A stretch of 54,400 nucleotides of DNA from Candidatus Levybacteria bacterium RIFCSPHIGHO2_01_FULL_41_15 (GTDB lineage Bacteria > Patescibacteriota > Microgenomatia > Levybacterales > UBA12049), in the NCBI GenBank assembly GCA_001782165.1, contig MFNV01000008.1, forward strand, positions 1 through 54,400, written 5' to 3'. Below the pieces are notes generated by a model. That model was not told the DNA's origin and made no database searches. It saw only the letters and a program-made list of their open reading frames with translations. This document shows, piece after piece, positions 10,656-50,454 of this stretch (position 1 is its first letter; each line of letters begins with the position of its first letter). The position numbers and the translations under genes were made by a program.

Positions 10656-11615
10656 ATGAAACATCAGGAGTATCAATATTTAAATCTTTTAAAAGATGTA
10701 ATGGAGAATGGTTTTGAAAAGCATGAGTTTAATTCGGGAATTATGTTTAAAAGCGTATTTGGACGGCAAATCCGGTTTGATTTATCAGCTGGTTTTCCTC
10801 TTCTAACAACAAAAAAAGTATTCCTTAGGGGAATTTTACATGAGCTGATCTGGTTTTTAAGAGGCGATTCGAATATAAAATATTTAGTCGATAATGATGT
10901 TCACATTTGGGATGAATGGGGATACAAGCGCTTCAAGGAAGCGCAAAAGAATTCAGAGTTCAGAGTTCAGAATTCAGAATTGACGATGGCAGAATATGTT
11001 GCAAAGATTAAAAGTTTGCCGGCTGATCACAAGTTTGTAAAAAAGTTTGGAGAACTTGGGCCGGTCTACGGGGTTCAGTGGAGGAGATGGCCGGCCTCTG
11101 ACGGACGCAAGATCGATCAGGTGAAGTGGGCGATTGAAAAAATTAAAAAAACGCCGGAGAGGCGGCACATTGTAATTTCTGCTTGGAATCCTGAGTTTGT
11201 TTATGAAATGGCAAAGCCCGGACAATCCGTTGCGCTTCCCCCATGCCATACGCTTTTTCAGTTCAACGTAATAAACGGGAAACTTTCGTGCCAGCTTTAT
11301 CAAAGAAGTGCTGATTTATTTTTGGGAGTTCCTTTCAACATAGCAAGTTATGCTCTTTTTACTATGATTTTTGCCCACCTAACAGGTTATAAACCGGGAG
11401 AATTCGTTCATACTTTTGGTGATGCGCACATTTACTCAAATCACTTTGATCAAGTCAATAAACAGCTAAAAAGAAAACCGCGGCCATTCCCAAAGATGAA
11501 AATAAATCCAGAATTGAAAGATATCGATAAAATAAAATTTGAGGATTTTACTTTGGAAGGCTATGACCCTTACCCTCCGATTAAAGGCGAAGTTACGGTA
11601 GTTGGGGGCTTTTAG
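10656..11615 (+). CDS. thyA: Thymidylate synthase
   Basis: [49 protein letters not shown]. Confidence 0.98.
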
Positions 11616-12157
11616 TCAGCATTTCCATTTCTTGCTAAATATCCGAGTCCTAATTCCCTGAGTCTATCTGGGTTTGATAGCGCTAGATTTCCTCGAATTG
11701 GCCTTTTCACCCAAGCAATTTTTGTGTGCTGGGGGTGCTTCATTGCGTCCTCGAGTGTCTGCGATTGTACTCTTCCTGTGTGTCTTGCATTATGAACTAT
11801 GTGTATTTTTTTGCCCTCGTCAATCCATATCATTGCAATGTGAATTCCCCTAAAATCGTTTTTATTTGTTGGGCAGAGACCTACTATGTCTCCAGTTTGA
11901 GCCTGTGATATGTCTTCAACGAGACTAGTATAATTAGTATCTTCGTATAGATCAGAAGATCTAAGTCGGGGAAGTTCGAAGCCCCTTGCAGAAACGATTG
12001 CATGAACTAAAAGTTCGCAATTTGTGCCTGCCTCTGGATTTGTGAAAACCTCCTCAACGTCAGTCGTATCGGGGTTTCGATCTGGTCTATATGGAATGGA
12101 AATTTCTGTTTTGTTTATGAATGCTTTCCACCTCGCAATTGGTATAATATACTTGTT
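11612..12157 (-). CDS. NlpC/P60-like cysteine peptidase reading frame; start codon non-canonical or frameshifted
   Basis: Hand translation shows the frame is stop-free from 12157 to 11612, but its first ATG/GTG/TTG is at 11833. It contains [41 protein letters not shown] and IVHNA. Confidence 0.6.
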
Positions 12158-12176
12158 TTAAGAAAAAAATGCAATA

Positions 12177-12683
12177 ATGAAACCTAGAATTAGTTTGATA
12201 GTTGCTGTTGATAGTATAAACGGAATCGGAAAAAAGGGTAAAATTCCATGGCATATAAAAGAAGACTTGGTTAGATTAAAGAACTTGACAAAGGGCAGAA
12301 TTGTTATTTTGGGACGCAAGACCTATGAATCAATGGTTTGGTATTACGATCGAAGTGGTCGTCCGATGCCCGCTAAGTTATATATAGTAATTACTCATGA
12401 CGAGGAACATAAGACTGCTCGAGAGAATGTTAAGACGGCTCATTCTCTTGACGAAGCATTAGAAAATGGTCAAGACGAGGAAGTATTCATTCTCGGAGGA
12501 GCGCAGATTTTTCAACAGGCAATTGATATGGGAATTGTTGATAGACTATACTTAACTCAAGTCGAAGGCGACTTTAATTGTGATACGTTCTTTCCTGATT
12601 ATTCAGAGTTTAAGAAAGTTTTAAGCGAGAAAAACGGCGAAGAAAACGTAATTAAATATAAATTCTTAGTTTTGGAAAAATGA
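12177..12683 (+). CDS. folA: Dihydrofolate reductase
   Basis: IVAVD..NGIGKKGKIPW, VILGRKTYES, ILGGAQIF, CDTFFP. Confidence 0.97.
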   Translation: MKPRISLIVAVDSINGIGKKGKIPWHIKEDLVRLKNLTKGRIVILGRKTYESMVWYYDRSGRPMPAKLYIVITHDEEHKTARENVKTAHSLDEALENGQDEEVFILGGAQIFQQAIDMGIVDRLYLTQVEGDFNCDTFFPDYSEFKKVLSEKNGEENVIKYKFLVLEK

Positions 12684-14002
12684 AAAATTTAAAAGCGGTT
12701 GATCCGCAAGTTTACGAACTCATAAAAAAAGAGGAAGAAAGACAAAAGGAGGTTTTGGAAATGATTCCCTCAGAAAACTATGCTTCAAGGGGAGTTCTCG
12801 AGGCTTTGGGAAGTGTTTTTAATAATAAATATTCAGAGGGTTACCCGCTTAAAAGGTATTATCAGGGAAATAAAATAGTAGATAATTTAGAACTTCTTGC
12901 ACAGGATCGAGCAAAAAAATTATTCGGCGTCCCTCATGTAAATGTCCAACCATATTCAGGTTCTCCGGCAAATACAGCAGTCTATTTTGCGCTTTTGGAA
13001 CCTTTAAAAGATAAGATTCTCGGATTATCTTTGGCCTTCGGGGGCCATCTGACTCATGGAGCACCTGTTTCGATTTCGGGAAAATACTTTAAAGTTATAC
13101 CTTATCATTTAAGTGATAAGGGACTGATTGACCATGATGAAGTTGAGAGACTCGCGGTTGAGGAACAACCCAAAATTATAGTCTGCGGCGCAACAGCTTA
13201 TCCAAGAATTATAGATTTTAAAAGATTCGGCGAAATTGCAGAAAAAGTTGAGGCATATCTTTTGGCTGATATTTCCCATATTGCGGGGCTGGTTGTCGGC
13301 GGAGTTCACCCCTCACCTGTTCCCTATGCTCATATAATAATGACGACAACGCATAAGACATTAAGGGGTCCAAGAGGCGCTATGATAATGGTTACAGACA
13401 AAGGTCTTGAGAAGGATCCGGAACTTCCCGATAAGATTGATAAGGCAGTATTTCCAGGTTTGCAAGGGGGACCGCATGATAATCAAACTGCGGCAATTGC
13501 TGTGGCCCTTGAAGAGGCAGGAAAGCCGGAATTTAAAAGATATTCAGAACAAGTTGTAAAAAACGCAAAAACTTTAGCGGACGAACTTTTAAAATTTAAA
13601 TTTGATCTTGTTTCAGGAGGGACCGACAATCACCTCTTGCTTATAGATTTAACTACAAAAAAAGCAAACGGTGCTCTTGCCGCATATGCTTTGGAGGTGG
13701 CAGGAATTGTTGTAAATAAAAACGCAGTGCCAAATGATCCTCTGCCTCCATTTTATCCTTCGGGAATCCGGCTTGGAACCCCTGCAATCACAACGCGCGG
13801 GATGAAGGAAAAAGAAATGATAAAGATTGCGTCTTGGATTAATCTAGTTATTGAAGAAATCAAGGGCGAAGAACTGCCGAAAGAAAAAGAGAGTAGAAGT
13901 TATTTCTGGAAAGAATTCAGAAGAAGAGTTAAAGAAAATGAGAGACTTCTGGAGATAAAAGAAGAGGTAAGAGCATCTTGCTCAAAGTTTCCAGCCCCCT
14001 AA
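12680..14002 (+). CDS. glyA: Serine hydroxymethyltransferase
   Basis: IPSENY, KYSEGYP, GGHLTHG, THKTLRGPRG (PLP lysine), SGIRLGTPA. Confidence 0.98.
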   Translation: MKNLKAVDPQVYELIKKEEERQKEVLEMIPSENYASRGVLEALGSVFNNKYSEGYPLKRYYQGNKIVDNLELLAQDRAKKLFGVPHVNVQPYSGSPANTAVYFALLEPLKDKILGLSLAFGGHLTHGAPVSISGKYFKVIPYHLSDKGLIDHDEVERLAVEEQPKIIVCGATAYPRIIDFKRFGEIAEKVEAYLLADISHIAGLVVGGVHPSPVPYAHIIMTTTHKTLRGPRGAMIMVTDKGLEKDPELPDKIDKAVFPGLQGGPHDNQTAAIAVALEEAGKPEFKRYSEQVVKNAKTLADELLKFKFDLVSGGTDNHLLLIDLTTKKANGALAAYALEVAGIVVNKNAVPNDPLPPFYPSGIRLGTPAITTRGMKEKEMIKIASWINLVIEEIKGEELPKEKESRSYFWKEFRRRVKENERLLEIKEEVRASCSKFPAP

Positions 14003-17648: not shown

Positions 17649-18524
17649 ATGCAGGAAATTACACTTGAAGAGCTTCTTGAGGCCGGATGCCACTTCGGCC
17701 ATCAAGTAACACGCGGAAACCCCAAGGCAAGAGATTACATCTTCGAAGCTAGGGATAATATCCATATAATTGATTTGGAGAAAACCAAGAAAGGCCTTGA
17801 GGAGGCAGGAAGATTAATTTATGAACTTTCGAAACGGAATGGATCCTTACTTGTTTTGGGCACCAAAAGACAAGCGCAAGGAATAGTTGAAGAAGAAATA
17901 AAAAGAGCAAAACAACAGGTCTCAAGCAAAATTACAAACAGGATTTTCTATGTGACGAATAGATGGATTGGAGGGACTTTTACAAATTTTTCAGAAGTTG
18001 CAAAAAACTTCAAGAAGCTTAAAGATTTAACTCAAAAACTTTCAGATGAGGAGGAAAAAGCAAAATATACAAAAAAAGAGGTCGGGCTTTGGCAAAAAGA
18101 AAGGCAAAAACTTGAGCTGCTTTATGGAGGAATAGCCGATCTTGATAAAATTCCGGATGCAATTTATATAATAGATTCACATTTGGAGAATCTGGCTGTT
18201 TTGGAAGCAAGGAAAATGGGGGTTACGACTCTTGGGATTACCGATACAAATGCGGATCCTGAAATAATCGATTATCCGATTCCTGCCAACGATGATGCAA
18301 CAGGATCGATAAAAATAATTACAAAATATATAATAGATGCATGGATTGAGGGAAGACAAGACTCAGTTAAAAGTGAAAAAATAAAAGTTAAAAATGGTAA
18401 AGGAGGGTCAGAGAGTCAAAGTTCAAAAGATTCAAAGATAAACCCCACTTCGCGTAAAGCTTCGCGGGGCAAGGGAAAGGAGGCAAGTGGTAAAGGCAAG
18501 ACTCGAACTTCTAAAAAAACTTAG
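17649..18524 (+). CDS. rpsB: 30S ribosomal protein S2, with repeat-derived C-terminal tail
   Basis: LLEAGCHFGH, VGTK-like LGTKRQ, RWIGGTFTNF, DTNADP, PANDD. Confidence 0.97.
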   Translation: MQEITLEELLEAGCHFGHQVTRGNPKARDYIFEARDNIHIIDLEKTKKGLEEAGRLIYELSKRNGSLLVLGTKRQAQGIVEEEIKRAKQQVSSKITNRIFYVTNRWIGGTFTNFSEVAKNFKKLKDLTQKLSDEEEKAKYTKKEVGLWQKERQKLELLYGGIADLDKIPDAIYIIDSHLENLAVLEARKMGVTTLGITDTNADPEIIDYPIPANDDATGSIKIITKYIIDAWIEGRQDSVKSEKIKVKNGKGGSESQSSKDSKINPTSRKASRGKGKEASGKGKTRTSKKT

Positions 18525-18962: not shown

Positions 18963-19517
18963 ATGGATTTGGATATAGTTAAGCAGAGAATGCAAAAGAT
19001 TCTTGAAATGCTGCGATCCGATTTGGCCACTGTGAGAACCGGTCGCGCCGCTCCATCACTTATTGAAGGTATTGTAATTAATGCTTATGGCGGTACACAG
19101 AAATTAAGACTCATGGAGCTTGCCACTATCGCAGCTTCGGATCCTCAGACGCTTGTCATAACCCCGTTTGATCAGTCGATCATAGGAGAGATACAAAAGG
19201 GTATACAGGAGGCAAATGTGGGTCTTAGTCCTGTAATAGATGGGGAACTAGTAAGGATTACAATTCCCCATCTTTCAGAAGAAAGACGGCAGGAACTTAT
19301 TCATTTGATGCGGCAAAAACTTGAGAATGGAAAAATAATGGTGCGACAAGTAAGGCACGAGGCAATGGCAGAGATAAAAAAACAAAAGGCACAAAAAATA
19401 ATTTCAGAGGATGAGGTGTCCCGTCTTGAGAAGGAAGTCCAAAAAGTAACGGACGAGATGATTACGGATATCGATTTGGTAGGAGAGAAAAAGGAAGAGG
19501 AACTCCTTTCAATTTAG
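18963..19517 (+). CDS. frr: Ribosome recycling factor
   Basis: VRTGRAAP, AYG, LSEERRQEL, VRQVR. Confidence 0.97.
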   Translation: MDLDIVKQRMQKILEMLRSDLATVRTGRAAPSLIEGIVINAYGGTQKLRLMELATIAASDPQTLVITPFDQSIIGEIQKGIQEANVGLSPVIDGELVRITIPHLSEERRQELIHLMRQKLENGKIMVRQVRHEAMAEIKKQKAQKIISEDEVSRLEKEVQKVTDEMITDIDLVGEKKEEELLSI

Positions 19518-19608
19518 AATTCAGAATCTAGAATTCAGAATTTTAATATTAAATTTTAACTCACTTTTTAATTAATTCTGAACTCTGAATTATAAACTCT
19601 AAATTCTT
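19518..19608. repeat. Inverted heptamer array (GAATTCA left arm, TGAACTC right arm)
   Basis: AGAATTCAGAATCTAGAATTCAGAATT...AATTCTGAACTCTGAATT, ending at the rseP ATG. Confidence 0.75.
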
Positions 19609-20721
19609 ATGGTTTTAACTATTTTAGTTTTTTTACTAATTCTAACAGTTCTCGTTCTAATCCATGAGGCGGGACATTTTTTTGTTGCAAAAAAGCTGGG
19701 AATAAAAGTTGAAGAATTTGGCTTTGGTCTTCCACCGAGAGTTTTTGGGATCAAAAAAGGGGAAACCATTTATTCCATAAACTGGCTTCCGATCGGAGGA
19801 TTTGTAAAGCTATATGGGGAAGATTCCGCAGGAAGCGGAAAAATCACAAATTCAAAATTACAAATTCCAAAAAAAGATGAAAGTCGGGCGTTTTTTGCGC
19901 GGCCTGTTTGGCAAAGAGGACTTGTTGTAATAGCAGGAGTTGTAATGAACTTCTTGCTTGCTGTTCTGATAATCACTTACTTTTTTGGAGTTTCGGGAGT
20001 ACAAGTTCCGGGAGATAGGGTTCTTGTAACGGATGTTGTTAAAGATTCGCCCGCACACGTGGGAGGACTTAAAAAGGCAGATCAAATAGTTTCTGTCAAT
20101 GATATTAAAATAAAAAATTCTACCCAGCTTGTTACGATAACCAAACAACATTTGGGAGAAAAAGTAAAGCTTAAGATTATAAGAGAGAAAGAACAAAAGA
20201 GCATAGAGATTATTCCGAGGAAAACTTATCCTTCAAATGAGGGGCCAATGGGTGTTTCAATATCATCAAATGTGATTACTCAAAAATATCCGTTATGGGA
20301 GGCGCCTTTTGTAGGTCTTTGGGAGGCTCTTAAATTTTCATGGCTGATTGTTGCGGGTCTTGCCGGAGTTTTCTATCAAATTTTAACCTCAGCACAAGTT
20401 CCCAAAGGAGTTGCAGGGCCGGTCGGTATAGCACAACTTACAGGGCAGTTTGTAGCCATCGGACCCTTGGCGGTTCTGTCTTTTGTCTCTCTTCTCTCCT
20501 TAAATCTTGCAATTTTAAATATTCTGCCAATTCCTGCTCTTGATGGAGGAAGGCTCTTTTTTATACTTATAGAGGCCATAACGGGGAAAAAAGTTTCATC
20601 AAAATTTGAAAGTATGGCTCATGCAATAGGAATGGCCATACTTCTTGCGCTTATTGCTTTTATAACCTTAAGTGATATTATTCGATTAATATCCGGTCAA
20701 CCAATTCTCCCAAAACCATAA
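19609..20721 (+). CDS. rseP: Site-2 membrane zinc metalloprotease with PDZ domain
   Basis: HEAGH, PIGGFV, AGVVMN, NILPIPALDGG. Confidence 0.95.
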   Translation: MVLTILVFLLILTVLVLIHEAGHFFVAKKLGIKVEEFGFGLPPRVFGIKKGETIYSINWLPIGGFVKLYGEDSAGSGKITNSKLQIPKKDESRAFFARPVWQRGLVVIAGVVMNFLLAVLIITYFFGVSGVQVPGDRVLVTDVVKDSPAHVGGLKKADQIVSVNDIKIKNSTQLVTITKQHLGEKVKLKIIREKEQKSIEIIPRKTYPSNEGPMGVSISSNVITQKYPLWEAPFVGLWEALKFSWLIVAGLAGVFYQILTSAQVPKGVAGPVGIAQLTGQFVAIGPLAVLSFVSLLSLNLAILNILPIPALDGGRLFFILIEAITGKKVSSKFESMAHAIGMAILLALIAFITLSDIIRLISGQPILPKP

Positions 20722-20748
20722 AATAAATTTAAAATTCAAAATTGCAAA

Positions 20749-21498
20749 ATGCAAAATTATCTTTCGACCCTGAGCTCAAGACCGAAGGGCAGCTCAAACG
20801 TAAAAAATAAAGATGGGATTTCAGTACTTAAAGTTTACAGCTCAACCTCAGGGGTTGAGCTTGCAAAAAGGGAGATATATAAAATTGTTGATGAAAGAAC
20901 GGCTCTTTTTTTATCCGGCGGATCCACCCCAAAACCTCTTTATCAAATTTTAGCAAAAGAAGGGAAACTCAAAGTCGGGGCAGTTGCAATGGTGGATGAA
21001 AGGTTTGGCCCGTCGTTTCATCAAAACAGTAATGAAAAAATGATTAAGGATACCGGACTTTTGTCATACCTTGAATCGAGAGATATTCCCCTTTACGGAA
21101 TTCTTAAAAATAAGTCGTTGGGAAAGACAGCGAGAGATTATGACAGTAAAGTTCGAAAGCTTTTAAATCAATTCCCCAAAAGCATTGCGATTTTAGGAAT
21201 AGGGGAGGATGGACACACCGCCAGCCTTCGGGCTGGAATTCAAAACTCAAAAGTTAAAAGTCAAAAGCTTGCAATAAGCATTAAGGATTTTCCGGGGGAG
21301 TTTAGGGAAAGAATAACATTAACCTTCCACGCGCTTTCTCAAATGGATTTATTAATAGTCTTGGTTTTTGGGAAAGAGAAGAGAAAAGCATTAAATCTTA
21401 TGTTTTCAGGAGGTCCGATTGGGGAAATTCCGGCAAGATTTCTGAATACCCCCAAAGTTTTAAAAAAGACTATTTTAATAACAGACCAAAGGGTATAA
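20749..21498 (+). CDS. pgl: 6-phosphogluconolactonase
   Basis: LSGGSTP, MVDER, SN..MI, LGIGEDGHTAS, RITLT, K; adjacent to zwf. Confidence 0.85.
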   Translation: MQNYLSTLSSRPKGSSNVKNKDGISVLKVYSSTSGVELAKREIYKIVDERTALFLSGGSTPKPLYQILAKEGKLKVGAVAMVDERFGPSFHQNSNEKMIKDTGLLSYLESRDIPLYGILKNKSLGKTARDYDSKVRKLLNQFPKSIAILGIGEDGHTASLRAGIQNSKVKSQKLAISIKDFPGEFRERITLTFHALSQMDLLIVLVFGKEKRKALNLMFSGGPIGEIPARFLNTPKVLKKTILITDQRV

Positions 21499-21675
21499 AA
21501 TAAATTACAAGCACAAAATTGCAAATCCTAAATGGTTCGACAAGCTCACTATCCTGAGTAGCGTCGAAGGATACATTCAAAATTTTAAATTCTAATATCA
21601 AAACAATTTTGAATTTTGAGCATTTGAAATTAAATATTACTTAGGATTTGGTGCTTCGAATTTAGAAATTTAATT
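21499..21675. repeat. Composite intergenic element with palindromic core
   Basis: Core 21528-21573; right arm ATTTGGTGCTTCGAATTTAG abutting the zwf ATG. Confidence 0.9.
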
Positions 21676-23106: not shown

Positions 23107-23243
23107 AAAAGATTTAAGACTTAAGATTTAAGAGTTATGACTAACTTTAAAAATTGTTCCATTGTTAAATTGCTGAATTGTTTATGGTAACCTTTGAGGA
23201 ATTTAATCCAGCCTTCGCTTAGAGCTACGGCGGATTTCATGCT

Positions 23244-27041: not shown

Positions 27042-28034
27042 ATGAAATATATTGTAACTCATTCATCGCCGGATTTGGATGCAATAACTTCCGTGTGGCT
27101 TATAAAAAGATTTTTACAAGGCTGGGAAGATGCGGTTTGCCAATTCGTTCCTGCCGGAGAACGAAGCGGCAATGGCAAATGGCAAATGGCAAATGGCAAA
27201 TCTCCAATAGAGAAGATTGGGGATGATGAGATTATTCATGTTGATACGGGACTTGGGCCATTGGATCATCATCAAACAGCTGATACTAATGTTTGTGCGG
27301 CAAGCCTCACGCTTGATTTCATCAAGCGAACAATCAACAATCAACAATCAACAATCAACAAGGAAAAACTCGAGGCACTCAAAAGAATGGTTAAAGTGGT
27401 TGTGGATATAGACCATTTTAAAGAGGTTTTTTGGAAAGATCCGACGGCGGATTATCATGAGTTTTCTTTGGTCGGAATATTGGACGGACTTAAAGTGATG
27501 AAGCCTGATCAGGATGATTATTATCTTAAGTTTGTTATGCAGTGTCTTGATGCCATCCTTCATCAATTTGAAAATAGGATTTGGGCAGAACAGGAAATTA
27601 AAGATAACGGGAAAGTTTTTAATACGAGATTCGGTAAAGGAATCGGTTTTGAAACAATAAATGATACGGTAATTAAGCTTTCCCAGAAGATGGGGTATGT
27701 GATTGCCGTAAGAAAAGATCCGAGAAAAGGGTACGTGCGCGTGAAGGCGATGCCTTCACAAGCTCAAAACTCAAAACTCGTGCCGCCGGCAAAGCCTTCT
27801 CGCCGTCGCGAAGCCTCGCTATGGCGGAGCGCGGTGGCGACGCTCGGCAAAACTCAAGACTCGGATATAGATCTAACTTTAGCTTATGAAAAACTTAAGA
27901 AGATGGACCCTGAGGCTACATGGTTTTTACATGTGGGGAGAAAAATGCTTCTGAACGGTTCTGTAAAAAATCCCAAAATGAGACCAACCAAGCTGTCTTT
28001 AAGTGATATAATAAAAGTTCTAGAAAAGATTTAA
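27042..28034 (+). CDS. DHH/MYG1-like metal-dependent hydrolase with three repeat-derived insertions
   Basis: VTHSSPDLDA, HVDTG, LDHHQ. Confidence 0.72.
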   Translation: MKYIVTHSSPDLDAITSVWLIKRFLQGWEDAVCQFVPAGERSGNGKWQMANGKSPIEKIGDDEIIHVDTGLGPLDHHQTADTNVCAASLTLDFIKRTINNQQSTINKEKLEALKRMVKVVVDIDHFKEVFWKDPTADYHEFSLVGILDGLKVMKPDQDDYYLKFVMQCLDAILHQFENRIWAEQEIKDNGKVFNTRFGKGIGFETINDTVIKLSQKMGYVIAVRKDPRKGYVRVKAMPSQAQNSKLVPPAKPSRRREASLWRSAVATLGKTQDSDIDLTLAYEKLKKMDPEATWFLHVGRKMLLNGSVKNPKMRPTKLSLSDIIKVLEKI

Positions 28035-28194
28035 GATTACAAATTATGAATTATGAATAAAATCATAAATCCAAAATTTCAAATCACAAATAAATCCAAA
28101 ATCTAAAATTCAAATATCAAAACTGTTTTGAATTTTTATAATTTGAAATTGGATATTATTTAGAATTTGGTGCTTTGGATTTGAGATTTAGCGT
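28035..28194. repeat. Composite heptamer inverted-arm intergenic element
   Basis: AAATCCAAAATTTCAAATCACAAAT ... ATTTAGAATTTGGTGCTTTGGATTT. Confidence 0.85.
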
Positions 28195-28524: not shown

Positions 28525-28720
28525 TAAAATACAGTAAGCATTGGAATTAAATCGCTCGGAACTAAATTTTTTCTTGGACCCGCAGTTCGCTTGTCGTCCT
28601 TCGAAAAAATTTGTTCCTCACTTTGATTAAGAAATTTTTTTCAATTTATTTCATTCTTTGGAATTTGAAATTATTTAGAATTTAGGATTTCGAATTTAGA
28701 ATTTTTTAAAGGAGGTGTTT

Positions 28721-28904: not shown

Positions 28905-29291
28905 ATGGCAGAAATTCAAGTCCCCATTTTTGTCGAAAGCAGATACAAAATAAGCCGAAAAAAAATAAGATCTTTGGTAGAGAATCTTCTGAACATGCAT
29001 GGCGTTGCGGGGAAAGTCGAAGTGTCCGTTGCAATCGTCGGGGACCGAAAGATGAGAGAACTTTCCCGCAAATACAAAGGAGAGGATAAAACCCGAAATG
29101 TACTTTCTTTCTCCCAAACCGAAGGTGGGCCGAATTATTCTCCTTCGGAAGCTCTTTTCTTAGGTGACGTTGTTATTTCATATCCTGAAGTTATAAAAGA
29201 GGCAACCAAAGAAGAGGTTTTGGTAGACGATAAGATAAATGAACTTGTAGAGCATGGAATAATGCATTTGCTTGGGATTAACCATGAATAA
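28905..29291 (+). CDS. ybeY: rRNA maturation endoribonuclease
   Basis: YKGEDKTRNVLSF, LGDVVIS, HGIMHLLGINH. Confidence 0.93.
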   Translation: MAEIQVPIFVESRYKISRKKIRSLVENLLNMHGVAGKVEVSVAIVGDRKMRELSRKYKGEDKTRNVLSFSQTEGGPNYSPSEALFLGDVVISYPEVIKEATKEEVLVDDKINELVEHGIMHLLGINHE

Positions 29292-29390
29292 TAAATCCAA
29301 AATTACAAATCCCAAATCACAAATAAATTCAAATATATAAATAACTAAATTCAAAATTTTTAGGATTTGGATATTGGAATTTAGGATTTG
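29292..29390. repeat. Composite heptamer inverted-arm intergenic element
   Basis: AAATCCAAAATTACAAATCCCAAAT ... TTAGGATTTGGATATTGGAATTTAGGATTT. Confidence 0.8.
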
Positions 29391-29404
29391 AAGCGGAGCG
29401 ACAT

Positions 29405-30931
29405 ATGGTTTTTTACCGCAAATACAGGCCAAGGAATTTGGAAGAGCTGGATAGCCTTGATGTCCGGGGAAAACTTAGGACTATCTTATCAAGGCCTTCT
29501 GTGCATGCACTTTTGCTCACGGGGCCAAAAGGACTTGGTAAAACTTCAGCGGCAAGGATCGTTGCTAAAGTCTTAAACTGCGAAAAATTAAACCTAAGTC
29601 CGAAGTCCAAAGTCCGAAATCTGGAAATTGAGCCTTGCAACAAATGTCCCCAGTGCATATCTATTACAAACGGCAATAATATTGACGTTTTAGAAATAGA
29701 CGGAGCATCAAACAGAGGGATAGATGAGATAAGAGATCTTAGGGAAAAAGTAAGACTTTCTCCGGCTTACGCCAGAAAAAAAGTATACATAATCGATGAG
29801 GTCCACATGCTAACAACCGAGGCTTTTAACGCTCTTCTTAAGATTTTGGAAGAACCTCCTTCGCACGTGGTTTTTATACTCTGTACGACAGAGCCATACA
29901 AAGTCCCTCCAACAATAGCCTCGCGCTGTTTTCATGTAGCTCTTAAAAGAGCAAAGCTTGATGAGCTTGTAAGATCTTTAGAAAGAATTGTCAAGAATGA
30001 AAAGATAATAGCGGATAAGGATTCTTTGCTTGAAATCGCAGGACTCTCGGACGGAAGCTTTAGAGACGCTGCAAAGATTCTTGAAGAGGTTTTTGCAAAC
30101 GCGGGAAGAAAGAAAATCACCAAAGATCTTGTCTCCTCGATTTATCAAACTACAAATATTGTAAGCGTTGTTGATGAGTTTCTTAAATTTACAATTTTAA
30201 AAGATGTCAAAGGGGCTATCGGTTTTTTGGGAAAACTTTCTTCCTCGGGAATGGACATGAAGTATTTATCAGAACAAATCATTTCAAGAATTCATGAATT
30301 TCTCCTTGAGAAGGTGGGAGTTTCAAAGGAAAAGTCCGACCTTTCGGAAAGTCTTGAGATTACTAAGATAAAAGAGCTTGCCGAAATATTTACTTTAGCA
30401 AATTCCAAAATAAAATATGCGGTTTTGCCGCAGTTGCCTTTGGAACTTGCAATCATTGAGTGGGTTGACTTAGGAGACGTTCGTAGTGAGGGCGCTGAGG
30501 TCGTTCGGGTTTCATTAAAGACTCGGCAAACACATGTTGAGAATGATGCTCATTTGGGTTTGTCAAAAAAACAAAGTTTACCCCACTCGCTAAATGAAAG
30601 CCTTTCTAAAAGTTTAAATAAGAAAAGCAAGAAGGATCCGACGGCTTTCAGTTCATTCTCAAATGGTTTGCCTTCGTCTTCTGTAAGGCCAACAAATCGG
30701 GATATCCTTTCGGAGTTGATTAATAGAGTCAAAACCAAAAACCATTCGCTGGCGGGAATTTTGAGGGGCTGTATTTTGGAAAGTTATAACGGTAAGAGAT
30801 TTGTTATAGGAACCAAATTCAAATTTCATAAAGAAAAACTCCAAGACCGTAAGGTCAGAGGAATTCTGGAAAATGCACTTAGGGAAACTTTGGGAAAGAG
30901 AATTCCTATCTCAATTGTACAAAAATCTTAG
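29405..30931 (+). CDS. dnaX: DNA polymerase III subunit gamma/tau
   Basis: YRKYRP, GPKGLGKT, EIDGASNRGIDEIR, IIDEVHML..EAFNALLK, SRC, GSFRDA. Confidence 0.97.
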   Translation: MVFYRKYRPRNLEELDSLDVRGKLRTILSRPSVHALLLTGPKGLGKTSAARIVAKVLNCEKLNLSPKSKVRNLEIEPCNKCPQCISITNGNNIDVLEIDGASNRGIDEIRDLREKVRLSPAYARKKVYIIDEVHMLTTEAFNALLKILEEPPSHVVFILCTTEPYKVPPTIASRCFHVALKRAKLDELVRSLERIVKNEKIIADKDSLLEIAGLSDGSFRDAAKILEEVFANAGRKKITKDLVSSIYQTTNIVSVVDEFLKFTILKDVKGAIGFLGKLSSSGMDMKYLSEQIISRIHEFLLEKVGVSKEKSDLSESLEITKIKELAEIFTLANSKIKYAVLPQLPLELAIIEWVDLGDVRSEGAEVVRVSLKTRQTHVENDAHLGLSKKQSLPHSLNESLSKSLNKKSKKDPTAFSSFSNGLPSSSVRPTNRDILSELINRVKTKNHSLAGILRGCILESYNGKRFVIGTKFKFHKEKLQDRKVRGILENALRETLGKRIPISIVQKS

Positions 30932-32540: not shown

Positions 32541-33554
32541 ATGAAGATTTTTTCCGGCTCTTCCAATAAACCCTTAACTGCTAAAATCGCAAAAGAGTTA
32601 GATCTGAAATTATCCGATACTGAGATTTTCATTTTCCCCGACGGAGAGAGAAGGGTAAGAATTTTAGAAAATGTTGTTGATGAGGATGTTGTAGTTATCC
32701 AGACAACATCTCCCAATCCCGACACTTATTATATAGAGTTGTTTTTTCTCGTTGATGCGGCTAAAAGATCAGGAGCAAAATCAATTACCGCAATAGTTCC
32801 ATATCTTGGCTACCAAAGACAGGATCATGTCTTCAGAGAAGGTGAGGCTGTGTCTTTGGAGGTTATTATCGAAACTTTGGAGGCAGTCGGTATGGACCGG
32901 CTTATAACTTTGGATCTTCACTCGATAAAGATTCCCGAACTTTTTAAAATTTCTATTGTTCATCTTTCCGCCCTTCCTATTTTTGCAGAAAAGATTAGGC
33001 AGTTATCGGTTCTCGGTAATCAGTTGTCAGAAACGGGTCGGTCGGTTATCGGTTCATCAGTTCAGACAAACAGAAGACAGATAAACCAGAATCCGAAAAC
33101 AGAAAACAGAAAACCGACAACAGATTGTCTTTTGGTTTCTCCGGACATGGGAGGAATTAGAAGAATTAAGATTTTATCAGAGCTTCTTTTTGATGCTCCT
33201 TTTGTTTCTGTGGTAAAAGACCGGGATCTTAAGACGGGAGAAGTAAAATCCAGTCGGTTTGATAGAGATTTGGGGTTTAAAAAAGATAAAAAAAGGGCTA
33301 TCATAGTGGATGATATGATTTCAACCGGAAGGACAATAAAGGCAGCCTGTGATCTTGTTTGGTCAGCCGGAATAGAGGAAATCTATGTTTTCGCAACCCA
33401 CCCTGTTTTCTCAAACGATTACAAAAATATCTTACAAAACTCAAAAGCCGGGAAAATTTTTGTAACAGATACAATTGATGTCCCGGAAGAGAAGCGTTTT
33501 GGTAAACTTGAAATTCTCTCGGTTTCTAAAATGATTGCCGAAGAACTAAAATAG
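32541..33554 (+). CDS. prs: Ribose-phosphate pyrophosphokinase with a ~41-aa repeat-derived insertion
   Basis: FPDGE, PYLGYQRQD, LDLHS, VSPDMGG, VDDMISTG.T, ATHPVF. Confidence 0.96.
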   Translation: MKIFSGSSNKPLTAKIAKELDLKLSDTEIFIFPDGERRVRILENVVDEDVVVIQTTSPNPDTYYIELFFLVDAAKRSGAKSITAIVPYLGYQRQDHVFREGEAVSLEVIIETLEAVGMDRLITLDLHSIKIPELFKISIVHLSALPIFAEKIRQLSVLGNQLSETGRSVIGSSVQTNRRQINQNPKTENRKPTTDCLLVSPDMGGIRRIKILSELLFDAPFVSVVKDRDLKTGEVKSSRFDRDLGFKKDKKRAIIVDDMISTGRTIKAACDLVWSAGIEEIYVFATHPVFSNDYKNILQNSKAGKIFVTDTIDVPEEKRFGKLEILSVSKMIAEELK

Positions 33555-33624
33555 AATTGTTAAATTGTTCCATTGCTAAATTGCTGTTACAATTAAACAA
33601 TAGAGCAATCGAGCAATAGTTTTT

Positions 33625-34290
33625 ATGAGGATTCCAAAAGCAATACTAAATTTAATTGAATCTTTTGAGAAATTGCCGGGGATTGGTCCCAAGACTGCCC
33701 AAAGACTAACATTTTATCTCTTGCATGTCCCTCAGGGTGAATTGGATAAGTTCTCAGAATCAATACAAAATCTAAAAAAAGGAACAGTTTTATGTTCTGT
33801 GTGTTTTGCAGTGGGGGAAAAAGACCCCTGTCATATTTGCGCTGATGAGAAAAGAGATAAATCAATAATTTGTGTTGTTGAAGAGGCTCTTGATGTTTTC
33901 TCAATTGAAAGAAGCGGAAAATTTGGAGGTGTTTATCATGTTCTTCATGGAAGAATAGATCCTCTTAACAGTATAGGCCCTGATGAAATTTATATCAGCC
34001 AGCTTCTTCAAAGAGTCAAAGAGACATCAAACGGAGTCAAAAGAGTCAAAGAAATAATTTTGGCGACTAATCCTACTATGGAAGGGGAAGCAACTGCAAT
34101 GTATATCGCGAAGAAACTTCGTGAACAATCAACAATTAATAGGCAATCACCGCAAATGCGGGATCCCGCTGCGGCGGGACAATCAACAATTACACGTATT
34201 GGGCGGGGATTGCCGATGGGAGCAGATATTGAATATGCAGACGAAATAACTTTACAAAGAGCGCTTGAGGGGAGACAGGTTTATGAGTAA
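33625..34290 (+). CDS. recR: Recombination mediator RecR, with repeat insertions
   Basis: LPGIGPKTAQRL, C4 zinc finger, YHVLHG, ILATNPTMEGEATA, GADIEYAD. Confidence 0.97.
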   Translation: MRIPKAILNLIESFEKLPGIGPKTAQRLTFYLLHVPQGELDKFSESIQNLKKGTVLCSVCFAVGEKDPCHICADEKRDKSIICVVEEALDVFSIERSGKFGGVYHVLHGRIDPLNSIGPDEIYISQLLQRVKETSNGVKRVKEIILATNPTMEGEATAMYIAKKLREQSTINRQSPQMRDPAAAGQSTITRIGRGLPMGADIEYADEITLQRALEGRQVYE

Positions 34291-34774
34291 AAAAGGCGGA
34301 GTCTTAAGCTTAGAAGAGGCACTAGAAACCGGAGTTTCCATGGCAAAAAAATCTGCAAAAGCCGTTGTGGGAGCTGCGTCAGACGCGGGAAAAGCAGCCG
34401 GTTCTCAAATAACAGGAGTACAGGATAAAGATACGCAGGATATTGTAAATTCATTATACGCAGAAAGCGAGAAAGAGAAAGATAAGAGTCAAAGAGTCGA
34501 AGTTCAGGGCTCGAATGATCAGCCCGATAATACTCCCGAAGGCTTAGAAAAGAAGAAGAAACTTGCGCAGTTACGGCAACAACTTCATAATGAAGTTTAT
34601 TACGATCCTTTAGTAAATCCGTCTAAGCCTAAACAAGAAGAAAGGCCGGCGGAAAAAGTCGAAAAAGAAAAGCAGGAAGAAATGATTGGGCTTCAGGAAA
34701 AAAAGAAGAAGGAACCGCCGCCGCTTATCCAAAGACAGAAGACAAGGATTGAGAGACTACCCGGAGCAGGATAA
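34283..34774 (+). CDS. Hypothetical charged protein
   Basis: ATG 34283 overlaps the recR stop; low-complexity K/E/Q composition. Confidence 0.65.
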   Translation: MSKKGGVLSLEEALETGVSMAKKSAKAVVGAASDAGKAAGSQITGVQDKDTQDIVNSLYAESEKEKDKSQRVEVQGSNDQPDNTPEGLEKKKKLAQLRQQLHNEVYYDPLVNPSKPKQEERPAEKVEKEKQEEMIGLQEKKKKEPPPLIQRQKTRIERLPGAG

Positions 34775-34865
34775 AGTTCAATTTTCAATTTTTAATCAAA
34801 TCCAAATTTTTTAAATTTAAAACATTAAAAATTCAATAAAAATTTAAAATTTCAAATTTAAAATT

Positions 34866-41948: not shown

Positions 41949-42221
41949 ATGTTAAAACCCGTAGCCTTTGCCCACGCCGTAACAATAGTTACAGCAGTAT
42001 TTTATCTACTCTGCGCACTGTTAGTTTATTCTGCCCCTGATTTAATTTTTGGTATCACCCAGTCGTGGTTTCACGGCCTTAATATTGAGGCGGCAAGAAC
42101 AGCATTTCCTCTTTCGATAGAAAGAATCTTATGGGGACTTATAACAATCTCTGTGGTAACATGGGTAACTACCTATGCGACTATTGTTTTGTATAATCGA
42201 TTAGCAAAACAGAAGGGATAA
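41949..42221 (+). CDS. Small two-TM membrane protein (DUF5676-like)
   Basis: SD GGGAGGTG; CALLV...P......SWFHG pattern; two hydrophobic helices. Confidence 0.65.
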   Translation: MLKPVAFAHAVTIVTAVFYLLCALLVYSAPDLIFGITQSWFHGLNIEAARTAFPLSIERILWGLITISVVTWVTTYATIVLYNRLAKQKG

Positions 42222-44935: not shown

Positions 44936-45012
44936 TTTACAAATTGTTAAAATTGTTATATTGTTGAATTGTTAAACTAGCTACTAGCAATTAGTAACTA
45001 GCCACTAGTTTT

Positions 45013-45561
45013 ATGGCAAGAAGTCTTAACAGAGTTCAATTAATCGGAAACCTCACGAGAGATCCTGAGCTTCGGTATACACCCAACGGAACTGCAGTTT
45101 GTTCTTTTGGTGTTGCTACAAACAGAAGTTGGACAACCGAATCTGGAGAAAAAAGAGAGGAAGCAGAATTTCATAGAATTGTGGCATGGAACAAACTTGC
45201 CGAAATCTGCTCTCAATTTTTAGTAAAGGGAAGGAAAGTTTATCTTGAGGGAAGGCTTTCGACAAGAACATGGAACGCTCAAGACGGGACACAGAAAAGC
45301 ACAACAGAAATAATAGTTTCTGACATGATCCTTTTGGATTCAAGAAGAACCGAGGAGGAAAAAATTGATGAAGAACCCGAGAGTCAGAGCTTAGAAAAGC
45401 CGGACAAGACTGCTAGCCTTGATGTGAAGCGGGCCGGGCAGGCAGGGAGTCAAAGTTTAAAAACAGAAAAAAATTTAAAGAAAAAGAAAACGAAGGAAGA
45501 CTCAAAGGAAGAGGATGAAGGCAAAGATGAGGACGTAGCCCCCGAAGATATCCCCTTTTAA
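45013..45561 (+). CDS. ssb: Single-stranded DNA-binding protein
   Basis: LNRVQLIGNLTRDPELRYT, EGRL.TR.W, C-terminal DIPF. Confidence 0.98.
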   Translation: MARSLNRVQLIGNLTRDPELRYTPNGTAVCSFGVATNRSWTTESGEKREEAEFHRIVAWNKLAEICSQFLVKGRKVYLEGRLSTRTWNAQDGTQKSTTEIIVSDMILLDSRRTEEEKIDEEPESQSLEKPDKTASLDVKRAGQAGSQSLKTEKNLKKKKTKEDSKEEDEGKDEDVAPEDIPF

Positions 45562-45732
45562 CTAGTAACTAGAAACTAGCCACTAGTAACTAGTTTTAAT
45601 ACTTAATGCCCAACACTGATTTAGGTTGTTGTCAAACCTGAAATAAATTGCTAAAATTATATACTCGCTTACTATCTACCGTCTACGGTATACAGCTGTA
45701 GTCAGTAGTTTGAAAGCTGAAAGCTTTTTATT

Positions 45733-46769: not shown

Positions 46770-46771
46770 AT

Positions 46772-48064: not shown

Positions 48065-48240
48065 ACTCTAAATCCAAAATCACAAATCCTAAATGGTTCG
48101 ACAAGCTCACCATCCTGAGCAGCGTCGAAGGATAAATTCAAATGTTCAAAATAATAAATTCAAAACGTTTTGTATTTTGGTTATTTGATTTTTAATATTA
48201 ATTGGAATTTGGTGCTTTGAATTTGGGATTTAAATTGATT
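48065..48240. repeat. Composite intergenic element with palindromic core
   Basis: Core 48089-48137 is identical to 9050-9098. Confidence 0.9.
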
Positions 48241-49341
48241 ATGAGACGTTTAATTATTTCAGTATTGATACTCGTAGTAATTTTATTTGGTTTGAGTGCT
48301 TTAGTAAATAAATTCTCCGACATTAATCTGCCCAAAAGTGAAGTACAGCCTGAAAAAGTAAAAATTGTAAAGGAAGAGTCGGTTGCTGTCGATGTCGTTA
48401 AGAGGGTCGGACCCTCTGTTGTTACCGTTGTTGAAAGTTCTCAAAGAAGTTTTGGATTCGGTTCATTTGATGTTCCTGATACAGAAGAAAGAAATATCGG
48501 TTCAGGTTTCATTATCTCCGAAAACGGCTTAATAGTTACAAACAAACATGTTGTATCAGATAAAGAAGCAACTTACCAAATAGTAACAAGCGACGACAAA
48601 AAATACTCGGTTCAAAGAATTTTTAGAGACCCCTTAAATGATATTGCAATTCTTAAGGTAAATTTTTCCGATAATCCGGGGACTCGACTTAAGTCTGTCG
48701 AGCTGGGGGATTCATCAAAACTTGAAGTAGGACAATTCGTTATTGCCATCGGAACTGCACTTGGGAAATTCAGAAATACTGTAACGACAGGGGTCGTCTC
48801 GGGTTTGGGCCGGGGAATTACCGCAGGATCGGAGTTTGAGGGATTTGTTGAAAGGCTTGATAATGTTATCCAGATATCAGCGGCTGTTAATCCGGGCAAC
48901 TCAGGGGGTCCTTTGGTAAACTCCGCAGGACAGGTAATAGGGGTGAATACTGCAATTGCAAGGGGAGGTCAAAACATCGGATTCGCGCTTCCTATAAATA
49001 CAGTAAAAGAGGCGGTTTCAAATTTCAACGAACATGGAGAAATAGTAAGGCCCTATTTGGGAGTAGTTTACAGGATAGTAACAAGAGATGTTGCGCTTCT
49101 TAATGAAGTTCCGCAGGGAGCACTCGTTCAAGAGGTAATTGAAGGGTCGGGAGCAGACAAAGTGGGAGTAAGACAAGGGGATATAATAACGACGGTTGAG
49201 GGAAAAAAAATCGAGGAGATAAATGATTTGGCAGACACAATAAAAGATAAAAAGGTGGGAGATCGTCTGACTCTTGTCATTTGGAGGGATGGAAAAACTC
49301 AGGAAGTTAGAGCAACTTTGTCATCCGCCCCGAACAACTAG
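48241..49341 (+). CDS. htrA: HtrA/DegP-family serine protease, one PDZ domain
   Basis: GSGFII, TNKHVV, DIAILK, AVNPGNSGGPL. Likely start ATG 48241. Confidence 0.93.
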   Translation: MRRLIISVLILVVILFGLSALVNKFSDINLPKSEVQPEKVKIVKEESVAVDVVKRVGPSVVTVVESSQRSFGFGSFDVPDTEERNIGSGFIISENGLIVTNKHVVSDKEATYQIVTSDDKKYSVQRIFRDPLNDIAILKVNFSDNPGTRLKSVELGDSSKLEVGQFVIAIGTALGKFRNTVTTGVVSGLGRGITAGSEFEGFVERLDNVIQISAAVNPGNSGGPLVNSAGQVIGVNTAIARGGQNIGFALPINTVKEAVSNFNEHGEIVRPYLGVVYRIVTRDVALLNEVPQGALVQEVIEGSGADKVGVRQGDIITTVEGKKIEEINDLADTIKDKKVGDRLTLVIWRDGKTQEVRATLSSAPNN

Positions 49342-49374
49342 TAACTAGTATCTAGTAACTAGTATAATAGTGGA

Positions 49375-50454
49375 ATGGTTAGAATCCAGAAAAACATTTC
49401 ACTTAAAAATCTCAGCAATTACAGAATCGGAGGTCCTGCCTCTTTCTTTGCAGAAGTTAAGAATCCCGAAGAACTTTCGCAAGTTTTAAAAGACCGAAAG
49501 AAACTTGAAAACCCAAAAATTTTTGTTCTTGGAGAGGGAACAAATGTTCTGTTCAAAGACAGTGGATTTGACGGATTGGTAATTAAGAATAAAATTAACG
49601 GAATTAAGATATTAGACGACAGAGAGTCAAAGAGTTCCTCCTTCGCTAAAGCTTCGAAGGACAAGCAGAGAGTCAAAGGATCAGAGAGTCAGAGAGTCAA
49701 AGTTGGGGCAGGAGTTCTGTTGGAGGATTTGCTTGCCTTCTGCATTGAAAATTCTTTGTCTGGTTTTCAGTGGGCAGGAGGACTTCCGGGGACATTAGGC
49801 GGAGCAGTCCGGGGGAATGCCGGCGCATTTGGAGGAGAAATAAAAGACAACATAATAGAGGTAGAAAGTTTGGATAGCAGTACCTTAGAAATTAAGAAAA
49901 GAAGCGTGAATCAGTGCAAATTTGGATACAGGACAAGTGTTTTTAAGAGTCAAAAAGAGTCAGAGTTTAAGAGAGTCAGAGAGTCAAAGAGTCAGAGTGA
50001 GAAAGAGTCAGAGTCTAAAAGAGCTGCGGGACAGGAGATTATCATTTCCGCAACTTTAAGTTTAACAAAGCGTAATAGAGATGATATCGCTTCGAAAATT
50101 CAGGAGAAAATAGATTACAGGAACTTAAAACATCCTCTTGAATATCCGAATATAGGAAGTATTTTCAAAAATATTCCCGTAGAGAAAGTTCCTCAAAAAA
50201 TATTAAAACAATTAAGAGACTCGATAAAAAATGATCCTTTTCCGATTCTACCAACAGCAAAGCTTCTGGCTGTCGCGAGTCTAAAAGGGAAAAGACAGGG
50301 AGGTGCAATGGTTTCCAAGAAGCATCCTAATTTTATTATAAATTTTAACAATGCCACATCAGAGGATGTAAAGACTCTAATCCACAAATTAAAAGAGATT
50401 ATAAAATCAAAATACGGGATAGAACTGGAAGAAGAAATCTCAAACCTCGGGTGA
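49375..50454 (+). CDS. murB: UDP-N-acetylenolpyruvoylglucosamine reductase, with two repeat insertions
   Basis: IGGPA, LGEGTNVL, PGTLGGAV.GNAGAFG, FGYRTS.F, GSIFKN, HPNFIIN. Confidence 0.95.
   Translation: MVRIQKNISLKNLSNYRIGGPASFFAEVKNPEELSQVLKDRKKLENPKIFVLGEGTNVLFKDSGFDGLVIKNKINGIKILDDRESKSSSFAKASKDKQRVKGSESQRVKVGAGVLLEDLLAFCIENSLSGFQWAGGLPGTLGGAVRGNAGAFGGEIKDNIIEVESLDSSTLEIKKRSVNQCKFGYRTSVFKSQKESEFKRVRESKSQSEKESESKRAAGQEIIISATLSLTKRNRDDIASKIQEKIDYRNLKHPLEYPNIGSIFKNIPVEKVPQKILKQLRDSIKNDPFPILPTAKLLAVASLKGKRQGGAMVSKKHPNFIINFNNATSEDVKTLIHKLKEIIKSKYGIELEEEISNLG

Follow-up and report, generated by a model that had tools for sequence, protein, structure and literature searches.

The window analysed here is a 54,400-nucleotide (nt) stretch of contig MFNV01000008.1 from Candidatus Levybacteria bacterium RIFCSPHIGHO2_01_FULL_41_15, a member of the candidate phyla radiation (CPR). 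It carries a series of protein-coding genes, among them dcd, tmk, dcd2, thyA, frr, rseP, zwf, rpsU, dnaX, prs, recR, cysS, rpsF, ssb, and murB, and short tandem arrays of 7-nt units are scattered through the spacers between them and inside some of the genes. Pfam scans of the window open reading frames (ORFs) of at least 90 residues (except the 90-residue ORF at 41949–42221) returned housekeeping and surface proteins, and no reverse transcriptase, primase, extra polymerase, or member of family PF05635. Bacterial heptamer repeats have been on record since 1990, and their origin and role have remained unexplained. Here, we describe the arrays of the window and relate them to a palindromic cassette, built around a PF05635 gene, that is present in full in related genomes. 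Coordinates refer to the plus strand unless another strand is given.

Arrays were called with Tandem Repeats Finder (TRF) at a minimum score of 30, which gave 84 rows for the window; after merging of overlapping rows, 36 non-redundant period-7 arrays remained, alongside 4 of period 6, 10 of period 8, 4 of period 9, 8 of period 10, and 1 of period 11. The control set, 80 loci of unrelated bacteria totaling 1.16 Mb and fetched with dnaX (29–52% identity, many phyla), has 2.5 period-7 arrays per 54.4 kb by TRF and no preference for period 7. Lag 7 has 8 exact runs of at least 10 matches, where dinucleotide shuffles predict 0.12 and every other lag has 0–2, and the autocorrelation of non-coding DNA peaks at lags 7 (0.362), 14, and 21 over a baseline of ~0.28–0.29. 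Lag 8 comes second (0.327), and period 8 is also raised in the array counts (10 versus ~2 expected). The period-7 arrays account for 10.3% of the bases in non-coding DNA and 0.76% in coding DNA, a 13-fold non-coding enrichment, and 18 of the 36 are 31–36 nt long, i.e., 4.4–5.1 units. Their units are diverse, with 34 canonical forms among the 46 exact two-copy sites counted across the window and three relatives, and an AATT core is common to 17 of the 36 units in the TRF list. Logan metagenome contigs end at arrays, and word depth rises 10- to 80-fold there, so array words recur at many other places in these communities.

The window arrays are not the product of chance; they represent, in Levybacteria, the heptanucleotide class of bacterial tandem repeats, known as short tandemly repeated repetitive (STRR) sequences or ‘long SSR-7’ (simple sequence repeats, SSRs), and the data support the period, rather than the unit, as the constant feature. 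An earlier note on this DNA had described tandem heptamers with differing units and a common 7-nt period, which these 36 arrays and 34 units bear out, and had named a lack of excess at period 7 over periods 5, 8, 10, and 11 as the result that would count against it. The excess holds in TRF counts, lag runs, and autocorrelation, and therefore stands. The comparison with other genomes that the note had called for points the same way: syntenic contigs of relatives, reached through ThyA homologs at 81–92% identity, have 2.4–7.3 period-7 arrays per 10 kb (L081–L084), compared to 0.47 in the controls. The AA dinucleotide that the note saw at fixed phase in many units carries no weight, since the strand is A-rich; the AATT core is more telling.

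The same note had reasoned that ordinary slippage favours no one period, which contradicts published surveys. According to the accounts of Mrazek’s 2007 survey given in PMC4679880 and PMC4692102, heptanucleotides are the most abundant long SSR class in most prokaryotic genomes, and a slippage bias arising from the polymerase footprint has been proposed. A rival explanation builds on this bias alone: the replisome would slip by 7 nt, arrays would grow from chance two-copy seeds, and PF05635 cassettes would merely sit in array-rich spacers. The 34 different units are what one would expect under such a scheme, as are the many arrays without a complementary partner and the behaviour of coding DNA, in which period-7 arrays outnumber even the frame-neutral period-6 and period-9 arrays. 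However, it does not readily account for a sharp length peak at 31–36 nt, with no decay with length, or for the recurrence of AATTCAG at unrelated sites, and the cassette data that follow weigh further against it.

In relative L091, whose ThyA is 92% identical, the dcd2|thyA spacer contains a 128-residue gene of PF05635, the ‘23S rRNA-intervening sequence protein’ or Avd-like family of four-helix bundles (Pfam E = 1e-24), flanked by AATTCAG/AGTTCAG units on the left and xTGAATT/CTAAATT units on the right; at the same junction, the window has a gene-less module of another unit type. The nearest solved relative of the L091 protein is PDB 2RLD (E = 2e-17), an entry with five chains. Close relatives carry this gene in two spacers, at a length of 128–134 residues, between complementary AATTCAG and CTGAATT arrays. 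Searched against metagenome contigs, the L091 protein yielded 31 loci, and 32 were read including L091 itself, all of which show such arrays. Downstream of the gene, period 7 scores highest among the lags at every one of the 32; upstream, it does so at 29 of the 31 whose flank on that side could be read. Once duplicates are removed, the gene has period 7 on both sides at 19 of 24 loci (79%), as opposed to 15 of 173 other ORFs (9%) in the same contig set, a disparity in complementary flanking arrays that argues against slippage alone. Per-locus duplex z-scores show the arms to be complementary (z < -3 in 18 of 20 loci, median -5.3), and at L117, both arms have switched unit together, to AATTAYG and CRTAATT.

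The cassette occupies about a dozen contexts, including dcd2|thyA, thyA|folA, tmk|dcd2, and frr|rseP, and every copy read is located between protein-coding genes or inside one, not in a 23S rRNA helix. Decayed cassettes are found in L092, where positions 1–200 hold a decayed PF05635 ORF at dcd2|thyA, and in L124. In several relatives, ThyA starts within the right arm, which gives it the N-terminus MNSKL. The gammaproteobacterial control L004 has a PF05635 gene (E = 5e-32) with an ATCTTGA-type heptamer array downstream and complementary heptamers at the gene’s 5′ end. Further heptamer or octamer arrays were noticed in control loci of Anaerolineae, Nitrospiraceae, and an uncultured low-GC bacterium (L017 4589–4669, L044 9272–9374 and 12199–13003, and L027); those of L017 and L044 are inverted arm pairs, so the architecture is not confined to CPR bacteria. 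The dcd2|thyA spacer of another close relative (L093, 416–892) has a DUF5680 gene and, after it, what is left of the cassette right arm.

Two sites of the window match this cassette directly. Relative L098 has a full cassette between frr and rseP (PF05635 E = 2e-24), and the window’s frr|rseP spacer (19511–19608) retains both AATTCAG-type arms, 31 nt apart, with no ORF. It reads, in units, AATTTAG, AATTCAG, AATCTAG, AATTCAG, and AATT, with the frr stop codon TAG in the first unit, then the 31 nt, and then AATTCTGAACTCTGAATTATAAACTCTAAATT. The arms (19511–19542 and 19574–19605) form a 32-nt inverted repeat that is 81% complementary, with a fold z of -3.5. The second site is an in-frame ARTTCAG array (10948–10981) in the hypervariable loop of ThyA. 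The earlier note had listed it as TTCAGAR, and the array is there, with 4.9 copies and 92% matches. Profile models of the cassette arms, run with nhmmer, match 19510–19542 (E = 5e-9) and 19570–19612 (E = 1e-8), and the left-arm match in thyA spans 10948–10983 (E = 7e-9). Judged by these sequence matches, some window arrays are arms, or single arms, of a PF05635 cassette.

A broader set of spacers has the same palindromic layout. Eight fold far better than shuffles, with z between -3.45 and -5.6 (9016–9199, 19518–19608, 21499–21675, 28035–28194, 29292–29404, 33555–33624, 48065–48201, and 50455–50647), and in seven of these, an A-rich array past the stop codon (AAATYCN, or AATTYAG at 19518–19608) is paired with an NGRATTT/CTGAATT-type array before the next start. 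The dcd|tmk module (9016–9199; fold z -4.8, nhmmer E = 7e-17) consists of a left arm of AAATYCN x4.6 (9024–9055), a conserved right half (9113–9197), and a G/T-rich right arm that runs to the ATG. Modules of the AAATYCN family also lie at 21499–21675 (fold z -5.6, nhmmer E = 2e-19), upstream of the HIT gene at 28035–28194 (z -4.2, E = 2e-18), and at 48065–48234 (z -3.65, E = 2e-9). In the ybeY|dnaX spacer (29292–29404; z -4.2), AAATCMN x4.6 is paired with GGATTT-type units, and in the convergent-gene spacer at 50455–50647, assigned to neither strand, left AAATYCN arrays pair with right ATTTAGA arrays around GC-rich hairpins (z -3.45, nhmmer E = 6e-5). The hairpin at 33555–33624 (z -4.25) is made of octamer arrays, AATTGTTA x3.6 with CAATAGAG x2.8. 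The gene-less dcd2|thyA module (10502–10655) has TAAATCC x4.7 on the left and ATTTAGA-type units x7.9 on the right, with the stop TAA and the start ATG within the arrays.

Approximately 90 nt of non-repeat sequence is common to several modules, and an nhmmer model of the module right half finds six window sites as well as L081 and L084, with no match in the 80 controls. Sequence of this length held in common across sites and genomes makes the modules a dispersed family, and it is not a product expected of slippage alone. Common sequence beyond the repeats and inverted termini are also traits of miniature inverted-repeat transposable elements (MITEs) and repetitive extragenic palindromic (REP) elements; a comparison of occupied and empty sites gave no clear target-site duplication, and no transposase was seen. 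A 39-nt GC-rich hairpin, GGTTCGACAAGCTCACYATCCTGAGYAGCGTCGAAGGAT, occurs three times (9056–9094, 21534–21572, and 48095–48133), each copy following TAAAT within a heptamer array. The corresponding L084 module lacks this hairpin, which makes it a separate, later insertion, apparently of another small mobile element with the arrays as its target.

The position of the arrays invites a reading in which they are functional cis-elements in RNA, either stems cut by RNase III, as rRNA intervening sequences are, or unstructured landing sites for translation factors upstream of starts, a role that has been proposed for TAACTGA repeats. Arrays do abut starts and stops, hairpins extend over whole spacers, no obvious Shine–Dalgarno site was found by eye in array spacers, and TAACTAG/TAACTGT arrays lie 4–10 nt upstream of three start codons, as the TAACTGA repeats of Beggiatoaceae do. 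On the other hand, relatives manage without arrays, their genes overlapping or carrying unrelated filler at the same junctions, and the genes concerned are unrelated housekeeping genes. Consensus scans found no excess of promoter-like or terminator-like sites, and in 9 of 12 modules, folding of the antisense strand equals or exceeds that of the sense strand, on which ground selection for sense-strand RNA pairing was rejected. Given the antisense folding and the lack of a promoter or terminator excess, we make no claim of RNA function and regard cis-acting RNA elements as an improbable explanation.

Arrays within codons, which here and there occupy tolerant protein loops, give 7-residue periodic peptides, as the earlier note had observed; they are real, e.g., NGKWQMANGK. 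The ThyA loop of close relatives has other such peptides (NSKLKTQNSK, KLKIKN, and KKLNIKNKKHKKNIKNKK) or nothing. A DHH-like protein has arrays in three loops, and here, too, the heptamers previously listed were recovered. Loop 1 (NGKWQMANGK) is encoded by a perfect AATGGCA array at 27171–27201 (4.4 copies, 100% matches), three units (+21 nt) longer than in minimal homologs, which have only NGK; loop 2 (TINNQQSTINK) by a perfect AACAATC array, listed earlier as CAATCAA, at 27329–27361 (4.7 copies, 100% matches by TRF); and loop 3 by a CTCAAAA/AACTCAA array (27763–27860, with the confirmed heptamers at 27763–27779) that is divided by a 69-nt GC-rich in-frame insert, 27780–27848 (VPPAKPSRRREASLWRSAVATLG). 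Other GC-rich inserts occur in loops 1 and 3 of relatives. The loop-1 array resembles a local ‘NGK’ seed that has grown by three units, a growth pattern that slippage alone would produce. In other relatives, loop 1 reads NSEFRIQNSE, NIKYQKLNIK, or NVKFQMSNFK, the unit having changed in every copy together. Unit types also switch loops between relatives: TINNQQS, which the window has in loop 2, occupies loop 3 of P0136. The AATTCAG unit of the cassette arms recurs in the thyA loop and in loops of DHH-like homologs.

Two further genes hold heptamers in frame. In dnaX, AAGTCCG x3.3 was confirmed by TRF at 29596–29618. In prs, a roughly complementary pair, TTMTCGG-type units and then CAGAAAA x8.6, spans 33000–33124 with a fold z of only -1.6; these arrays add ~40 residues before the VSPDMGG motif.

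Comparison of matching spacers among relatives shows how arrays change over time. At dcd|tmk, where the window has its 184-nt module, L084 has a 144-nt module identical in kind without the GC hairpin, L081 has none and its genes overlap, and L082 has unrelated GATTTAA and ATTGTTAA arrays; at dcd2|thyA, the 151-nt module of the window corresponds to AATATTA arrays in L084, to overlapping genes with no array in L081, and to AATGGAA arrays in L082. The array at the end of tmk (9860–9895, AAGATTT/AAGAATT x5.1) encodes the last tmk residues and the stop codon and is matched by AAGATTT arrays in L082 and L084. The local homogenization proposed in the earlier note is thus seen directly, as arrays at matching positions stay in place and relatives differ by substitutions present in all copies. 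Over short times, the arrays are still. Six same-strain contigs from different samples are 99.96–100% identical over up to 21 kb, with no change in array length, so the arrays are not hypervariable on that time scale; the lack of slippage variants is a further point against slippage alone. The only length difference seen among the six assemblies is an 18-nt stretch missing from ybeY in L086 (~29043–29072), which leaves 122 rather than 128 residues. Phase variation was rejected at the consensus level on the constancy of array length, and the host sites (thyA, dnaX, prs, tmk, the DHH-like gene, and housekeeping-operon spacers) are not the surface or virulence genes of phase-variable contingency loci. 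A close relative encodes full-length MutS (L093, 2907–5408), and loss of mismatch repair is, therefore, no obvious explanation of the repeat load of the clade.

Taking the flanking complementarity, the common module sequence, and the constancy among same-strain contigs together with the points in its favour, we judge slippage bias alone unlikely, though it retains an appreciable chance of being the whole explanation.

The earlier note had proposed a dedicated mechanism of templated or iterative DNA synthesis, which might take the form of a reverse transcriptase partnered by an Avd-like protein of PF05635 or of a repair polymerase that reprimes repeatedly. Avd is an obligate cofactor of the reverse transcriptases of diversity-generating retroelements (DGRs), an RNA-binding pentamer whose four-helix bundles form a positively charged barrel (PDB 4DWL), and the PF05635 family to which it belongs forms pentamers, with Avd and Xcc0516 as published examples. 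This kinship, the constant period with varying units, and the set array length of ~5 units lend the proposal some appeal. However, no polymerase, reverse transcriptase, or primase beyond the ordinary complement was found in the window by Pfam, which leaves a dedicated synthesis machine unsupported, and none adjoins any of the 32 cassettes read. Telomerase-like or reverse-transcribed synthesis from a template is also at odds with the 34 units, which cannot stem from one template. The cassette protein and Avd are members of one superfamily, but neither a reverse transcriptase nor a template or variable repeat lies beside the cassettes. Over long divergence, arrays at corresponding positions are retained and drift, and among same-strain assemblies, they do not vary; both observations count against active synthesis. 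We consider a dedicated machine of this kind very unlikely.

The remaining arrays are described here in relation to gene ends, to which many are tightly fitted. The stop codon of the upstream gene typically opens the array or lies in it, as with TAA of TAAATCC at 10502, TAG of AATTTAG at 19511, and the arrays at 45559 and 49336, and the next start codon may fall at the array end or inside it (10604–10656 and 20725–20758). In the rpsF|ssb spacer (44941–45008), AAATTGTT x4.4, of period 8, is followed by AACTAGC x4.9 (the confirmed heptamers at 44975–45008), ending 4 nt before the ssb ATG; TAACTAG x5.1 (45559–45594) begins with the ssb stop codon; and AACTAGT x4.1 (49336–49364) holds the stop TAG of an htrA-like gene and ends 10 nt before the murB ATG. 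All three were among the sites of the earlier note, whose further AGAGTCA array inside ssb is absent by TRF, arrays only flanking that gene. The notion that the TAACTAG arrays of like unit around ssb, and the inverted arrays around HIT, bracket cassettes was rejected, the enclosed genes being ordinary housekeeping genes.

On the minus strand, TAACTGT, TAAGTGT, TAATTGT, and TAACTGT in succession (4634–4664) lie 5 nt upstream of the start of a cohesin-domain gene (4014–4628), in the manner of TAACTGA repeats, and GTCAATA-type units x4.9 (4701–4734) lie directly past the stop of the minus-strand gene 4737–6656. On the plus strand, TAACAAT x4.4 (8362–8393) is upstream of dcd; AAATTCA/AAAATGC x4.7 (20725–20758) holds the start codon of a 6-phosphogluconolactonase-like gene; AAGATTT/AAGACTT x4.9 (23109–23142) lies directly past the zwf stop and is followed by an octamer array (23151–23182); ATTTAGA x4.6 (28673–28704) is upstream of rpsU, with a metagenome word depth of ~1000 versus ~12 nearby; and AT-rich period-7 arrays, TTCAATT and TTTAAAA x8.3, fill the spacer before cysS (34775–34865). 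GATTTAA units, listed at three places, hold at 9860–9895 and 23109–23142 and fail at ~28029, which has AATTATG x2.4. Near the start of the window, AATTTTC/AATTTCA x4.7 (917–949) is non-coding and lies between the 16S rRNA 3′ end and tRNA-Cys. Positions 1–464 are the 3′ 464 nt of the 16S rRNA gene, with tRNA-Cys(GCA) next (1170–1243); tRNA-Ile(GAT) is on the opposite strand at 1985–2057, and 2060–2152 resembles a second, partial tRNA. An Rfam scan of the window found 16S rRNA and one tRNA only.

A second class of in-frame arrays has period 8, with units AGAGTCAG, CAGAGAGT, and TCAAAGAG, and yields 8-residue periodic peptides. They lie at 49942–50023, 49666–49699, 34008–34052, 34484–34502, and 18408–18439, in murB, recR, the ORF after recR, and rpsB. 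One of them, AGAGTCAG x7.2 in frame in murB (49942–50023), repeats at 8, 16, and 24 nt and is not a heptamer array. It and the recR array (34008–34052; period 8–9) had been entered in the earlier note as AGAGTCA heptamers, and the arrays listed there as AATTGTT heptamers (located at 23151, 33555, and 44941) are likewise of the octamer AAATTGTT.

Several known repeat families resemble these arrays. The STRR or long SSR sequences of Calothrix and Nostoc are 7-nt tandem units, several per genome, mostly intergenic, with period 7 dominant among periods 5–11, as in the window; the window arrays differ in belonging to a CPR bacterium, in being AT-rich, in their set length of ~32 nt, in often holding a stop or start codon, and in that some are cassette arms. 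The heptamers GGGAATC and GGGGA(C/T)T of Xanthomonas and Nostoc are G-rich (Rehm et al. 2015, PMC4692102). Like the window arrays, they are intergenic, some form inverted pairs, and close species differ widely in their length and sequence at the same spacers, but they are quadruplex-capable, with no cassette link reported, whereas the A/T-rich units of the window are incapable of forming quadruplexes. TAACTGA direct repeats are found directly upstream of start codons in marine Beggiatoaceae, cyanobacteria, and Bacteroidetes (MacGregor 2015, PMC4679880). They share with the window 2–6 heptamer copies near starts, the lack of a canonical ribosome-binding site, and unrelated downstream genes, and the arrays before ssb (44975–45008), before murB (49336–49364), and at 4634–4664 on the minus strand occupy the same position. 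However, the window units TAACTAG, TAACTGT, and TAACAAT match TAACTGA at only 5–6 of 7 positions and coexist with many others, and the window arrays, unlike TAACTGA repeats, also follow stop codons and form hairpin arms.

As to the cassette, 23S rRNA intervening sequences with an S23p/PF05635 ORF are known from Leptospira, Coxiella, and Xanthomonas. They have the same plan, a PF05635 gene between two complementary, stem-capable arms, whereas the cassette lies between protein-coding genes and has arms of tandem heptamers; the ‘23S rRNA intervening sequence’ wording of CDD and Pfam for PF05635 is quoted in PMC10053308. Rickettsia palindromic elements and MITE- or REP-like elements are, like those of the window, short palindromes dispersed in spacers and occasionally in frame in housekeeping genes. 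The window elements differ from them in having tandem-repeat arms with changeable units and a full form with a non-transposase gene, and no transposase partner is known.

We consider it probable, on balance, that the arrays are tied to a palindromic PF05635 cassette, that most arrays not matching it directly are similar in origin, and that slippage and arm templating homogenize them. The derivatives in the window would be the joined arms at frr|rseP, gene-less AATTNNN/AAATYCN modules in at least six spacers, and the single in-frame arm in thyA, and most other arrays may stem in the same way from related cassettes. Repeated contraction and re-expansion by replication slippage, together with templating from arm to arm, would keep the arrays uniform, which would account for units that differ between sites and agree within a site. 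Within genes, an array can preserve the frame only by gaining or losing units in threes (21 nt), and selection on the reading frame would restrict coding arrays to such steps. Period 7 itself could be a property of the element family, the outcome of a general slippage bias toward 7 nt, or both, rather than the work of a dedicated polymerase.

Several observations weigh against this cassette origin. The window has no PF05635 gene by the Pfam scans, and the cassette-arm models match significantly only three window arrays at two sites; the AAATYCN arms match weakly (E = 0.007–0.05), and other arrays do no better. A crude test found a clear complementary partner within 250 nt for only 4 of 27 non-coding arrays, many being solitary, and the broader proposition that all arrays are hairpin arms was rejected on this result. 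No full-length partner was found for AAATYCN modules, TAACTAG arrays, or octamer arrays. RNAalifold across cassettes gave no consensus stem, probably because of the AU-rich arms and their ambiguous register. The 31 cassette loci were found by protein homology, and their arms are conserved by descent rather than being independent events. The NGK seed in the DHH-like protein fits plain local slippage without a cassette, we know of no mobility or DNA-repeat function for PF05635, and the cassette origin leaves the choice of period 7 unexplained.

A more far-reaching proposal can be attached to the cassette origin. PF05635 cassettes might be mobile or self-propagating elements across phyla, whose pentameric protein recognizes, or helps to copy, arms of about five units, one unit per protomer, and whose decay would feed STRR sequences, Xanthomonas heptamers, and TAACTGA repeats. 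We hold this to be speculative and rather unlikely as it stands, and the analogy between a pentamer and a ~five-unit arm is offered only as a lead.

Heptamer over-representation, and the repeat class to which the window arrays belong, are already known. In the literature searched, no paper was found that connects heptamer repeats with PF05635 or rRNA intervening sequences or that describes such arrays in CPR bacteria. Relative to that literature, the new element is the link, in a CPR lineage, between the arrays and a PF05635 cassette whose full, gene-less, and single-arm forms share the same junctions. The old question of where heptamer repeats originate becomes testable, as one can ask whether the protein binds five-unit arms and whether the cassette moves. 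For the Levybacteria themselves, whose genomes are regarded as streamlined, the arrays rewrite gene ends by providing stop codons, start codons, and added N-terminal residues (MNSKL on ThyA is an example), and they also reshape surface loops of essential enzymes. If PF05635 cassettes are indeed mobile, they would be a source of the long-unexplained excess of heptamers in bacteria, and their arms would remodel protein loops and termini.

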